A DNA stretch of 41,657 bases from Escherichia coli (GCF_003334315.1 NZ_QOWR01000044.1); one strand, 5' to 3'; counted from the first letter of the stretch, positions 6,465-41,657 are shown. Program-made: numbers and translations. Notes: generated by a model not told the origin, from the sequence alone.

Positions 6465-7184
6465 ATGGCTACCCCACACATTAATGCAGAAATGGGCGAT
6501 TTCGCTGACGTAGTTTTGATGCCAGGCGACCCGCTGCGTGCGAAGTATATTGCTGAAACTTTCCTTGAAGATGCCCGTGAAGTGAACAACGTTCGCGGTA
6601 TGCTGGGCTTCACCGGTACTTACAAAGGCCGCAAAATTTCCGTAATGGGTCACGGTATGGGTATCCCGTCCTGCTCCATCTACACCAAAGAACTGATCAC
6701 CGATTTCGGCGTGAAGAAAATTATCCGCGTGGGTTCCTGTGGCGCAGTTCTGCCGCACGTAAAACTACGCGACGTCGTTATCGGTATGGGTGCCTGCACC
6801 GATTCCAAAGTTAACCGCATCCGTTTTAAAGACCATGACTTTGCCGCTATCGCTGACTTTGACATGGTGCGTAACGCGGTAGACGCGGCTAAAGCACTGG
6901 GCGTTGATGCTCGCGTGGGTAACCTGTTCTCCGCTGACCTGTTCTACTCTCCGGACGGCGAAATGTTCGACGTGATGGAAAAATACGGCATCCTCGGCGT
7001 GGAAATGGAAGCGGCTGGTATCTACGGCGTCGCTGCAGAATTTGGCGCGAAAGCCCTGACCATCTGCACCGTGTCTGACCACATCCGCACTCACGAGCAG
7101 ACCACTGCCGCTGAGCGTCAGACCACCTTCAACGACATGATCAAAATCGCACTGGAATCCGTTCTGCTGGGCGATAAAGAGTAA
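6465..7184 (+). CDS. deoD: Purine nucleoside phosphorylase
   Basis: 239 aa starting [38 protein letters not shown] lies upstream of the ATG at 6465. The ORF-track start at 6408 overlaps the deoB stop and is an over-extension. Confidence 0.97.
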
Positions 7185-7216
7185 TTGTGTTTCGCTGAAA
7201 GGCGAACGTCGTGTTA

Positions 7217-7246
7217 AGCCGGAGCAGGAGACTGCTCCGGCTTTTT
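7217..7246 (+). terminator. Intrinsic terminator of the deo operon
   Basis: Stem AGCCGGAGCAG (7217-7227), loop GAGA, stem CTGCTCCGGCT (7232-7242), followed by TTTT. Confidence 0.85.
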
Positions 7247-7344
7247 AGTATCTATTCATCAATAGCAACTGATTTATAGATTTACTATTATTTTTCATAT
7301 GGATAGAAAATAAAATCCATTCAAGTATCTATTCACGAATCTAT

Positions 7345-7608
7345 TCATTTATGTTCAGCCGTCATCCAGGAAGGGCATATCAGCAACTCTGGTGGACAAC
7401 CATAAATTTCTGCCATTTTGCTTTTGATGTTTGAGCTAAGCCGTTCCGTCTTTTCGATCTGTTTTAGAGAATTAATCGAGATACCTAACATTTTACTTAC
7501 TTCAGCAAGCGATAATTTATGCCTGATACGCACGGCGGCTAGCCAGGATATACCCTGGCTTAACATTAAATTGATAATCTCCCGCTCCTGGTTTTCCAGA
7601 TCGATCAT
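7345..7608 (-). CDS. Small XRE/Cro-C1-family helix-turn-helix protein (87 aa); orphan regulator or antitoxin-like protein
   Basis: Central HTH signature LSLAEVSKMLGISINSLKQIEK, followed by MAEIYGCPPELL. A strong SD (AAGGAAGGG) lies 3 nt upstream of the ATG. The start is 31 bp downstream of the lplA stop on the same strand. The CDS is about 41% G+C by hand count, lower than its neighbours. Confidence 0.75.
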   Translation of the reverse strand: MIDLENQEREIINLMLSQGISWLAAVRIRHKLSLAEVSKMLGISINSLKQIEKTERLSSNIKSKMAEIYGCPPELLICPSWMTAEHK

Positions 7609-7639
7609 ATTCCCTTCCTTTGGTATTTTAATCAGCGAG

Positions 7640-8656
7640 TTACCTTACCGCCCCCGCTATCCACGTCGACAACTCCCGTAGCTCTTTTTCCTGGTCCGGG
7701 AAGTCAACCAACAGCGCTTCGCACTCTTGTTGCAGCATATCCGCGCGGTACAGGCAGCCTTGCAGTCGCCCGGCGAGGGCTTCCAGCGGCGCGGGGTTGA
7801 GGCTGTCGGTAAACACCTGGGCGCGGGTGATATGGCCTTTTTCAACGTCGAAATGCAGTTCCACGCCGCCCCAGCTAAAGCGTTCATCCAGCAGATGCGA
7901 GAATGCCGGAGCCTGACCGAAGTTCCATTCCCAGCTACTCTGACGGGCAAAGGTTTCGGCGAAGTTTGGCAAGTCTGGCGTTTTGTCCGGGGAGATGATT
8001 TCCGCTTCTACACGCTCGCCATAATGGGCGAAAAAGGCCTTGGTTATGGCCTCGCAAACCTGCTCATGGGTGATCCCCGGCAACAGCTCGGTGAGGTTGG
8101 TCACGCGGGAACGTACCGACGTAATGCCTTTCGCCGCCAGTTTCTTTTTATCCGGATTGAGATAGTTTGCCAGGCGGCTAAGGTCGGCATTGAGCAGCAA
8201 GGTGCCGTGGTGGAAGCCACGATCTTTGGTTTCGCGATAGGCCGATCCTGAGACTTTGCGGTCGCCTTCGACTGTTTTCACCACCAGATCGTTACGCCCG
8301 GACGCTTCGGCGCTGACGCCGAGCGCGTTCAGCGCATTGAGCACAATCGACGTAGAGATGGTTTTATCGTACTCCGGCTTGCCAGCCATAAAGGTAAAGC
8401 AGGTATTGCCGAGATCGTGGAACACCGCGCCGCCACCGCTACTGCGCCGCGCCAGGCGGACGTTATCTTCTTCCATCCGCCGGGTATTACACTCTTTCCA
8501 CGGGTTCTGCGCGCGACCAATCACTACCGTGTCGGCATTGCGCCAGAGAAACAGAACGCGCTGCGTGGCGGGCATTTGGCGAAAAATACACTCTTCCACC
8601 GCCAGGTTAAACCACGGGTCGTAAGAGTCAGAGATGAGCAGGCGTAATATGGACAT
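7640..8656 (-). CDS. lplA: Lipoate-protein ligase A
   Basis: 338 aa starting [25 protein letters not shown], containing [15 protein letters not shown] and RKVSGSAYR. Recognised as LplA. Confidence 0.97.
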
Positions 8657-8683
8657 AACGATTTCCTTTCTTGTAGTAATGGG

Positions 8684-9328
8684 TCACTCTTTTTTCTCGC
8701 TTTCTTCCTCTTCCGGCACCGGTTTGCTGGCGGTTAACAGGAAGGGCGATTGCTGCCAGCGGGTGCGTTTACCCTGTAGCAGCGTGCGGGTCAGCACTAC
8801 GCCGATTGCCAGTGAGAGCAGCAACATCAGGCGTAAAATGTTAGTGGTGTTATCCACCTGTTGGGCTTCGGTGGCGAGCGTATGGGTGTCGAGTGTCAGG
8901 CGCAGATAGCCGAGCGGTCCGTTTTTACCCGCAATTGGCTCGACAATCTGCTGGTTAAAATAGCCGCCTGCTTTTTTACCGTCGAGCGCCAGCCGGTCGC
9001 GCACTTCGACGCTTTCGCCTGAACGGGCGATAAGATCGCCTTGTTCGTCATACACACCCGCGTCGAGGATGCGGCTTTCATCCGTTAACTGATCGAGGAT
9101 CGCCTGAATGCGTTTTTCATCTGGTGAGTCGGTACGCATCAGCGGTGCAACGTTCAGCGTTACCTGACGCGCCAGGGTGCGGGCCAGTTCTTCCAGCTGT
9201 GGATTACGTTGTCGCTGGTGGTTTTGACTAAACCATGACGCTCCCTGCATCAGCGCCACTAACAAGGCAAGACAGAACAGGACAATCACTGCCCGATGCA
9301 GCCGGAATTTCAGTTTTGTGCGAGCCAT
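8684..9328 (-). CDS. ytjB: SMP-family inner-membrane protein
   Basis: 214 aa starting MARTKLKFRLHRAVIVLFCLALLVALMQ, with N- and C-terminal hydrophobic segments. It is divergent from serB. Recognised as YtjB (Smp). Confidence 0.93.
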   Translation of the reverse strand: MARTKLKFRLHRAVIVLFCLALLVALMQGASWFSQNHQRQRNPQLEELARTLARQVTLNVAPLMRTDSPDEKRIQAILDQLTDESRILDAGVYDEQGDLIARSGESVEVRDRLALDGKKAGGYFNQQIVEPIAGKNGPLGYLRLTLDTHTLATEAQQVDNTTNILRLMLLLSLAIGVVLTRTLLQGKRTRWQQSPFLLTASKPVPEEEESEKKE

Positions 9329-31213: not shown

Positions 31214-31236
31214 AATCTATTCATTATCTCAATCAG

Positions 31237-41582: not shown

Positions 41583-41657
41583 CATAAGCGCTAACTTAAG
41601 GGTTGTGGTATTACGCCTGATATGATTTAACGTGCCGATGAATTACTCTCACGATAA
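41583..41657 (+). mobile_element. insL: IS186 left end: terminal inverted repeat plus the first 6 codons of transposase insL, truncated by the window edge
   Basis: CATAAGCGCTAACTTAAGGGTTG (41583-41605) is the IS186 terminal inverted repeat. ATGAATTACTCTCACGATAA at 41638 encodes MNYSHD, the InsL N-terminus. The element is preceded by a G-run/C-run target, GGGGATCACTCCC. Confidence 0.85.

Follow-up and report, generated by a model that had tools for sequence, protein, structure and literature searches.

A small helix-turn-helix gene occupies the place of hipH between deoD and lplA in most Escherichia coli

The stretch of Escherichia coli DNA analysed here (hereafter the window, 41,657 nucleotides (nt) in full) contains a gap of 455 bp at positions 7185-7639, between the genes deoD and lplA, in which a single gene encodes an 87-amino-acid helix-turn-helix (HTH) protein. 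The same gap in K-12 MG1655 is occupied by hipH (yjjJ), a plus-strand gene for a protein of 443 amino acids that abuts the lplA stop codon. The HTH allele is the majority state of E. coli and the K-12 arrangement the minority one, with this conserved slot holding either of two old haplotypes that exclude each other; the HTH segment, as one of them, is not a fast-turnover island.

The gap between deoD and lplA

The left flank of the gap is the backbone gene deoD (6465-7184, plus strand; stop codon at 7182-7184), placed both by the list of open reading frames (ORFs) and by the RefSeq annotation of an identical locus. Its intrinsic terminator (7216-7249, plus strand) was recovered by a terminator scan as a 12-bp G+C-rich hairpin, a perfect inverted repeat, followed by a T run, and it is also present in the hipH haplotype, where it aligns with K-12 and E. 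albertii. Next comes the relic hipH regulatory region, in which the motif ATCTATTCA is found within 98 bp in three exact copies and one copy with a single mismatch (starting at 7250, 7315, 7327 and 7339). Box 1 is a distal, exact copy of ATCTATTCA (7250-7258, plus strand); after a haplotype-specific spacer of 56 nt (7259-7314, no strand assigned) follow three proximal boxes in tandem with a 12-bp period (7315-7347, plus strand), namely ATCCATTCA at 7315-7323 and ATCTATTCA at 7327-7335 and 7339-7347. The spacer has a G+C fraction of 0.20 and lies at the position of the hipH promoter, without a good -35 element. The relic hipH start codon (7351-7353, plus strand) marks the end of homology to the hipH haplotype in alignments and BLAST. 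One further exact copy of ATCTATTCA in the window (31215-31223, plus strand) is within chance expectation for a single 9-mer.

The Xre/Cro-C1-type HTH gene (7345-7608, minus strand, ATG start) is the only ORF of at least 30 amino acids lying wholly within the gap, and RefSeq names its product 'helix-turn-helix domain-containing protein' (WP_000566152.1). At its 3' end the gene runs into the box region, such that its stop codon (7345-7347) falls within box 4, the last ATCTATTCA box, and the codon for His86 (CAT) is the reverse complement of the relic hipH ATG. At its 5' end the ORF starts 31 nt past the stop codon of lplA (7640-8656, minus strand; stop, as reverse complement, at 7640-7642), the upstream gene on the same strand and its probable transcriptional driver, with AAGGAAGGGAAT 5' of the start. 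The intervening 31-nt spacer (7609-7639, minus strand) contains the Shine-Dalgarno sequence AAGGAAGGG and no predicted terminator. G+C content is 0.391 over the whole gap, 0.417 over the HTH ORF and 0.240 over 7247-7346, against 0.524 for the window and 0.53-0.58 for deoD and lplA. These observations agree with a first-pass annotation of the same DNA in the AT-richness of the gap, in its coordinates (deoD ending at 7184, lplA at 7640) and in its one 87-amino-acid minus-strand HTH ORF; the K-12 MG1655 locus and BLAST likewise confirm its statement that K-12 has hipH here and that the window does not.

K-12 does not carry the same 455 bp, as that annotation had also held, but the first 169 nt (7185-7353) are common to both, and hipH-bearing genomes match them in BLAST at about 80% identity. 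Two blocks are conserved against the hipH haplotype, one running from the deoD terminator (7185-7249 common to K-12) through ...TTTTTAGTATCTATTCAT and the other, AAATCYATTCAAGTATCTATTCACGAATCTATTCATTWATG, comprising the box block (7313-7353) and ending exactly at the hipH ATG. Only 7354-7639 and the 56-nt spacer are specific to the HTH allele. On the right side, homology to the hipH haplotype is regained only at the lplA stop codon, which is TAA in the window and TAG in K-12, and the last 50 nt of lplA hold six haplotype-linked differences from K-12, against 0-2 per 50 nt elsewhere in the gene. The replacement of the hipH coding sequence amounts to 286 bp.

Distribution and origin of the two haplotypes

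We searched 5426 complete E. coli genomes with the 455 bp by megablast, counting matches of at least 80% coverage. The HTH allele was found in 4058 genomes, including O157:H7, B7A and the Nissle-derived SYNB1934, and hipH in 1348, including K-12, sequence type 131 (ST131) and UTI89. As the two counts together account for 5406 of the 5426 genomes, the states are mutually exclusive, and there was no sign among the 5426 of a genome carrying both. About 20 genomes are left for other states, two of which were sampled: WB61 (L026, 3001-3192), where an internal deletion up to lplA has left only the first ~140 nt of hipH, with the annotation of a partial 'transcriptional regulator', and E. coli 2017-01-4CC (L027, 2492-3532), where the insertion sequence (IS) IS1A lies inside the HTH gene and leaves two annotated pseudogene pieces. 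The lplA-HTH-deoD synteny extends to E. ruysiae and to one cryptic-clade Escherichia genome, and a 94%-identical protein is recorded under the name E. marmotae.

Two claims of the first-pass annotation need revision in this light. It had called the gap the only clearly accessory DNA here, which stands insofar as the other annotated window genes (identical-locus genome) all have K-12 names, from yjjW through thrLABC to dnaKJ, save for a terminal IS fragment; 'accessory' is nonetheless misleading for an allele present in 4058 of 5426 genomes and in other Escherichia. It had also proposed a replacement hotspot with turnover of cargo, a picture at odds with the ~99.6% of E. coli genomes that are in one of two states and with the stability of hipH from Erwinia to Escherichia.

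Some database matches call for caution. Two loci titled Enterobacter hormaechei (L003 and L005; CP170191.1 and CP169086.1) are of Escherichia type with a 98%-identical HTH protein and are probably mislabelled E. coli. A protein 71% identical to that of the window (P0035), with many replacements by F, L, W, C, Y or V, looks like the product of a damaged or error-rich read assembly, and a partial protein of 100 amino acids (P0259) on a 329-bp contig labelled Pseudomonas aeruginosa is likely contamination. Matches of 95-97% identity filed as plasmids are records of 0.4-4.9 Mb that look like chromosomal DNA.

HipH homologues are widespread in Enterobacterales, and we compared five hipH loci, from E. 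albertii, the lineage represented by contig L028, Citrobacter freundii, Salmonella enterica and Erwinia tasmaniensis. Identity to K-12 is 95.7% at the nucleotide level for E. albertii hipH and, at the protein level, 70% for L028, 62% for C. freundii, 58% for S. enterica and 49% for Erwinia tasmaniensis. In all five loci hipH directly follows deoD and is convergent with lplA, or in Erwinia with a smp-family (SMP_2) gene. Since hipH occupies the slot from Erwinia to E. albertii, hipH is ancestral and the HTH gene is the replacement.

Two of these loci have features of their own. The identity between E. albertii and K-12 hipH is above that of the flanking lplA (91.5%) and deoD (94.3%), a closeness that hints at between-species exchange of the hipH haplotype. 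The deoD-hipH gap of L028 (2356-3323) also contains about four repeats of ~100 bp resembling repetitive extragenic palindromes or bacterial interspersed mosaic elements (REP/BIME) and an ORF of 163 amino acids, with the hipH boxes intact downstream; the ORF product is presumably similar to the REP-associated tyrosine transposase of E. coli (RAYT/YafM).

Orthologues of the HTH protein were sought exhaustively with HMMER among 1.84 billion representative proteins, and only one true distant orthologue emerged, P0080, which is 87 amino acids long and 44% identical and is encoded on contig L019. There an lplA gene ends 64 nt before it, and the 3' end of deoD comes next. The LplA of L019 has 89% identity to that of E. 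coli, and the Citrobacter and L028 LplA proteins are at about equal distances from it. At the P0080 stop codon, L019 carries decayed last boxes and an ATG relic, TTCAAGGTGTCTGTTCATTcagTATG, compared with TTCACGAATCTATTCATT---TATG in the window. The comparison of the two sequences points to a single replacement event common to the Escherichia and L019 lineages.

The 56-nt spacer bears on the age of the HTH haplotype. Between genera its identity is 29-46% (shuffled control, 31+/-6%), and the window spacer is 43% identical (ungapped) to that of K-12, as divergent as the between-genus pairs; the K-12 and E. albertii spacers are nearly identical to each other, E. albertii being of the K-12 type. 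The window spacer stands at the distance of another genus from the native Escherichia hipH spacer, and the HTH haplotype is therefore deeply diverged. It was either imported by homologous recombination or long maintained, and did not arise recently by deletion from the resident hipH haplotype.

The HTH protein and its expression

The Cro/C1-type HTH read from the sequence at first pass was recovered by Pfam, in which HTH_3 (PF01381) matches residues 23-76 of the protein with 29.7 bits against a gathering cut-off of 23, over profile positions 1-55 of 55. AlphaFold predicts a compact, all-helical Xre fold with seven helices (predicted local distance difference test (pLDDT) 90, predicted template-modelling score (pTM) 0.80), among them an additional one at the N-terminus (residues 4-18) and a short one at the C-terminus. 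A sequence search of the PDB with the protein gave nothing significant; by structure, the nearest solved entries in Foldseek are C.BclI, CylR2 and P22 c2, and the best matches are all Xre-type repressors. The best local fits, to C.BclI, C.AhdI, CylR2 and the N-terminal parts of P22 c2 and CapH, have the same five-helix Cro/C1 core (TM 0.54-0.58; root-mean-square deviation 1.5-2.1 Å over 53-60 residues), but sequence identity to these repressors is 16-30% with E ~1e-2, the extra N-terminal helix sets the window protein apart, and the likeness implies no functional link.

The best family match is PHROG 7241 (E=8.6e-11), covering only profile positions 54-121 of 122; for members from phages and plasmids the match spans 1-121 and 8-121. 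These relatives are antitoxins of a HigBA-like, toxin-first type (for example Pmp14 gp0033 and WP_225988006.1 of Leclercia pZ96-1_2), and their HTH is homologous to that of the window protein, with 31-41% identity over ~70 residues and the common motifs (V/I)S(W/L)LAA(W/V)R...LGI...L.QIEK...(L/M)AEIY.C.P..L. They are 118-133 amino acids long, and the window protein aligns to their C-terminal ~70 amino acids; the alignment shows that it lacks their N-terminal ~50 residues (a Phd-like strand and an acidic linker) and ends in a 10-residue tail of its own. The predicted recognition helix is also altered, from the relatives' consensus GISQSALSQ to GISINSLKQ. Of eight genomic contexts inspected for relatives, five have a RelE/ParE toxin gene immediately ahead of the relative (one plasmid each of Leclercia and Serratia, Pasteurella phage Pmp14, an enterobacterial phage and the Atlantibacter contig L020, with a ParE_toxin gene); considering the plasmids and phages alone, four of five are toxin-first. 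By contrast, the window gene has a fixed chromosomal position after lplA, and no toxin ORF lies beside it, its neighbours being lplA and deoD; an adjacent toxin gene is likewise absent from the E. ruysiae and L019 loci. On the basis of these profile matches, the window protein is best described as antitoxin-derived, corresponding to the C-terminal HTH half of a PHROG 7241-type protein, and not as a complete antitoxin; the missing N-terminal region would be the toxin-binding part.

The first-pass annotation had seen in the protein the size and architecture of a HipB/HigA-type antitoxin. This was right to the extent that its nearest non-orthologous relatives are HTH antitoxins encoded after RelE/ParE toxins, and wrong in that their N-terminal ~50 residues are absent; its remark that there is no adjacent toxin candidate is borne out by the ORF list. 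HipB, the antitoxin of HipA, is likewise a small Xre-family HTH protein (88 amino acids), but the NCBIfam HipB model (NF007271) does not match the window protein at E<=0.1, though it does so weakly on longer relatives, and no hipA-like gene is adjacent. The likeness to HipH is mainly one of place, as the two genes have the same deoD-lplA slot and the same upstream box region, and both proteins contain an HTH; the HTH gene is nevertheless on the opposite strand and has no kinase domain. HipH is monocistronic with its HTH at the N-terminus (PMC8262856), and HipB has been reported to rescue HipH overexpression (PMC9948734). We considered and rejected an origin of the window protein from that N-terminal HTH: neither DNA alignments nor BLASTP found homology between 7354-7639 and hipH, and hhalign returned only a generic HTH match of 27 columns at 36% probability, in keeping with the earlier view that the ORF is not a hipH remnant.

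The protein could also serve, as the first-pass annotation had suggested, as an orphan antitoxin or anti-addiction factor that neutralises, or transcriptionally silences, incoming RelE/ParE-type modules of phages and plasmids. The PHROG 7241 match and the position of its closest relatives directly after toxin genes speak for this possibility; nonetheless, we consider it unlikely, as the N-terminal residues of all the toxin-linked relatives are absent, the recognition-helix residues are off consensus, no toxin ORF is adjacent and all orthologues are solitary. The 87-amino-acid gene would be an ordinary example of a lone regulator left over from the HTH domain of an antitoxin.

In 6900-8900, a region that covers the lplA-HTH gap, no minus-strand terminator-like site was predicted, and the sole promoter-like match on that strand has its -10 element over the HTH start codon, in agreement with the first-pass annotation, which saw no obvious promoter or terminator between lplA and the ORF. 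The 31-nt spacer and the Shine-Dalgarno sequence are kept across Escherichia alleles and partly in L019. The co-transcription with lplA that the same annotation had raised is therefore plausible, given the 31-nt gap, the conserved spacer and the lack of a predicted terminator. A 'yjjJ' signal from differential fluorescence induction sequencing (DFI-seq) in UTI89 was set aside as irrelevant to the HTH gene, since UTI89 carries hipH, and in the literature available we found no paper on the HTH gene or on the hipH/HTH polymorphism.

We propose that a small HTH gene displaced hipH, the ancestral resident, in one old event, which would have fused the last two codons and the stop codon of the HTH gene to the hipH leader. 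The gap now consists of the deoD terminator, a decapitated hipH 5' control region (four boxes with the ancestral spacing and an ATG) and the 286-bp replacement; the protein would have kept the HTH half of its antitoxin ancestor, having lost that ancestor's N-terminal part as well as the toxin. The HTH protein would be translated from the lplA transcript via its own Shine-Dalgarno sequence and would act as a solitary, probably dimeric, HTH repressor, not as a working antitoxin, its ability to neutralise a toxin presumably having been lost. The nearest candidate target would be the adjacent AT-rich relic promoter region. We regard translation from the lplA transcript together with a solitary Xre-type repressor role as moderately probable.

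Retained boxes and selection on the HTH gene

Upstream of hipH, all five compared loci carry one distal ATCTATTCA and two or three tandem boxes with a 12-bp period, which stop 2-3 nt short of the ATG. The stretch between the distal box and the last letter of the hipH start codon measures 104 nt in K-12, E. albertii, Salmonella and Erwinia, as against 103 nt in Citrobacter and L028; the box geometry of the window (104 nt to the ATG, ~65 nt from distal to tandem boxes) is identical to that of the former four and near-identical to that of the latter two. The block at 7313-7353 is nearly identical to the K-12 block just 5' of hipH and is kept in Salmonella, Citrobacter, L028 and Erwinia. Judging from these alignments, the box element is a deeply conserved cis-element of hipH, and the most economical reading would make it a candidate operator for the N-terminal HTH of HipH itself. 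This HTH 'may function to bind DNA' (PMC8262856) and is needed for toxicity and nucleoid localisation (PMC11452175). The first-pass annotation had taken an interest in the ATCTATTCA repeats as a target of the small HTH protein; because the four boxes, their geometry and the ATG are kept in the window without hipH, the repeats are better seen as the hipH control region, and not evidently as the operator of the HTH gene, the boxes being a cis-element upstream of hipH across genera.

In an alternative reading the boxes have been taken over: the retained ATCTATTCA copies would serve as binding sites for the 87-amino-acid protein or some other host factor, which could silence a relic hipH promoter that would otherwise fire antisense into the HTH gene and lplA, and the boxes would stay functional without hipH. 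The Escherichia HTH haplotype has kept all four boxes at their spacing although its spacer is saturated against every hipH haplotype, the boxes are decayed or replaced by REP-like DNA in the L019 lineage, and box 4 includes the HTH stop codon. A list of convergent excludons in K-12 contains yjjJ-lplA (PMC12288877), and in the same strain the deoD-yjjJ spacer is bound by RNA polymerase holoenzyme and H-NS in genomic SELEX (systematic evolution of ligands by exponential enrichment; PMC3946193). Against such a takeover, the boxes co-occur with hipH across genera and are far older than the HTH gene, and the HTH haplotype does not keep their number constant (there is a 12-bp indel, and a 77-bp deletion between boxes). 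Moreover, an Xre dimer typically recognises an inverted repeat, for which direct repeats with a 12-bp period would be atypical, and short-patch gene conversion from hipH haplotypes could equally keep the boxes intact; we hold a takeover to be quite unlikely. The intact boxes may reflect continuing function, such gene conversion or chance. A broader version, in which the two haplotypes form an ancient cross-species polymorphism between a toxin kinase and an antitoxin-derived repressor on the same conserved operator, the boxes being kept functional by the 87-amino-acid protein or a shared host factor, is in our view similarly improbable. If it were true, the HTH gene would be a functional substitute for the DNA-binding and autoregulatory role of HipH and not a passenger, and it might, for example, keep antisense transcription into lplA under control.

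Escherichia alleles differ in the number of boxes through the 12-bp indel and the 77-bp deletion. There are three proximal boxes in K-12 and most E. coli alleles and two in E. ruysiae, the cryptic-clade genome and contigs L009 and L012 (unit 7324-7335). In some HTH-haplotype genomes (L003-L005 and L018) the 77-bp deletion, corresponding to 7259-7335 of the window, removes the spacer and box 2 and has its ends in the direct repeats AGTATCTATTCA of boxes 1 and 3; L003 additionally lacks 8 bp in the deoD terminator region. Variant counts within the HTH haplotype do not separate boxes from spacer, with the alignment unreliable at its ragged 3' end.

Ten unique intact Escherichia alleles were compared to assess selection on the HTH gene. 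Pairwise ratios of nonsynonymous to synonymous substitution rates (dN/dS) are 0.16-0.55, mostly ~0.25, with 0.03-0.12 for lplA and 0-0.04 for deoD in the same genomes. Variant states comprise 24 synonymous and 28 nonsynonymous ones, fewer of the latter than the 79% expected under neutrality (binomial p=3.8e-5). Against P0080, dS is saturated (~2.4) and dN is 0.50, with both ORFs exactly 87 codons long and both preceded by a Shine-Dalgarno sequence. The HTH gene is real and under purifying selection. Orthologues are always solitary, which the first-pass annotation, together with lack of expression and neutral evolution, would have counted against its own reading; neutral they are not, with dN/dS at ~0.25 rather than 1.

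Several points weigh against the replacement of hipH by a solitary repressor as proposed above. Its phylogenetic depth depends on P0080, which is a singleton among ~15 billion proteins and lies on one contig of 1371 bp, and the share of genomes with the HTH allele comes from RefSeq complete genomes, which are a biased sample of E. coli. The word 'repressor' describes the class to which the protein seems to belong, and the toxin-binding function suggested for the missing N-terminal region is by analogy to other antitoxins. Selection is clearly weaker on the HTH gene than on its neighbours, and disrupted copies exist, with frameshifts in both Shigella flexneri loci and in strain Yu5 and an IS1 insertion in one strain; the HTH gene is therefore dispensable.

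That the ORF is a functionless, hitch-hiking leftover of a degraded toxin-antitoxin module, drifting to loss, would fit its narrow taxonomic range, a dN/dS several-fold above that of lplA or deoD, the frameshifted and IS-disrupted copies and the many truncated protein clusters on record, but it is quite unlikely given the significant excess of synonymous changes, the exact length and Shine-Dalgarno sequence kept in P0080 despite its divergence, the confident fold prediction and the fact that Shigella, a group known for genome decay, accounts for two of the four disrupted copies.

HipH has been studied as a toxin almost entirely in K-12, and about three quarters of complete E. coli genomes, including O157:H7 and a Nissle-derived strain, do not have hipH. 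Because most E. coli lack the gene, results on K-12 HipH do not transfer to most strains. This absence and the conserved box element are the more useful by-products of the analysis, and the four-box element upstream of hipH is a directly testable candidate operator for HipH autoregulation.

Minor features of the gap and window complete the description. The distal box and the adjoining spacer (7250-7281) form an imperfect palindrome, ATCTATTCATCAATAGCAACTGATTTATAGAT, in the HTH haplotype, which in minus-strand RNA folds beside the reversed deoD terminator hairpin; the predicted fold of 7190-7350 has a z-score of -6.0, largely owing to the terminator. Among known RNA families, only a sub-threshold CyaR match was found in 6900-7900 (21 bits, with the gathering threshold at 47; E=0.49). 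An inversion was considered on account of a 13-nt inverted repeat (7368-7380 and 7607-7619, 12 of 13 matching) that brackets most of the HTH gene and was taken as chance; about 0.1 such repeat is expected by chance, and its left arm varies among alleles (AGGAAGG, AGTAAGG, ATGAAGG). Two plus-strand reading frames, one short and reading on from the relic hipH ATG antisense to the HTH 3' end (7351-7434), the other a mechanical TTG ORF of 87 amino acids antisense to the HTH gene and the lplA end (7418-7681), have no evidence of being genes. At the far end of the window, beyond dnaJ, the last ~21 nt (41637-41657) belong to a frameshifted IS421 (IS4-like) transposase pseudogene, as annotated in the identical-locus genome.

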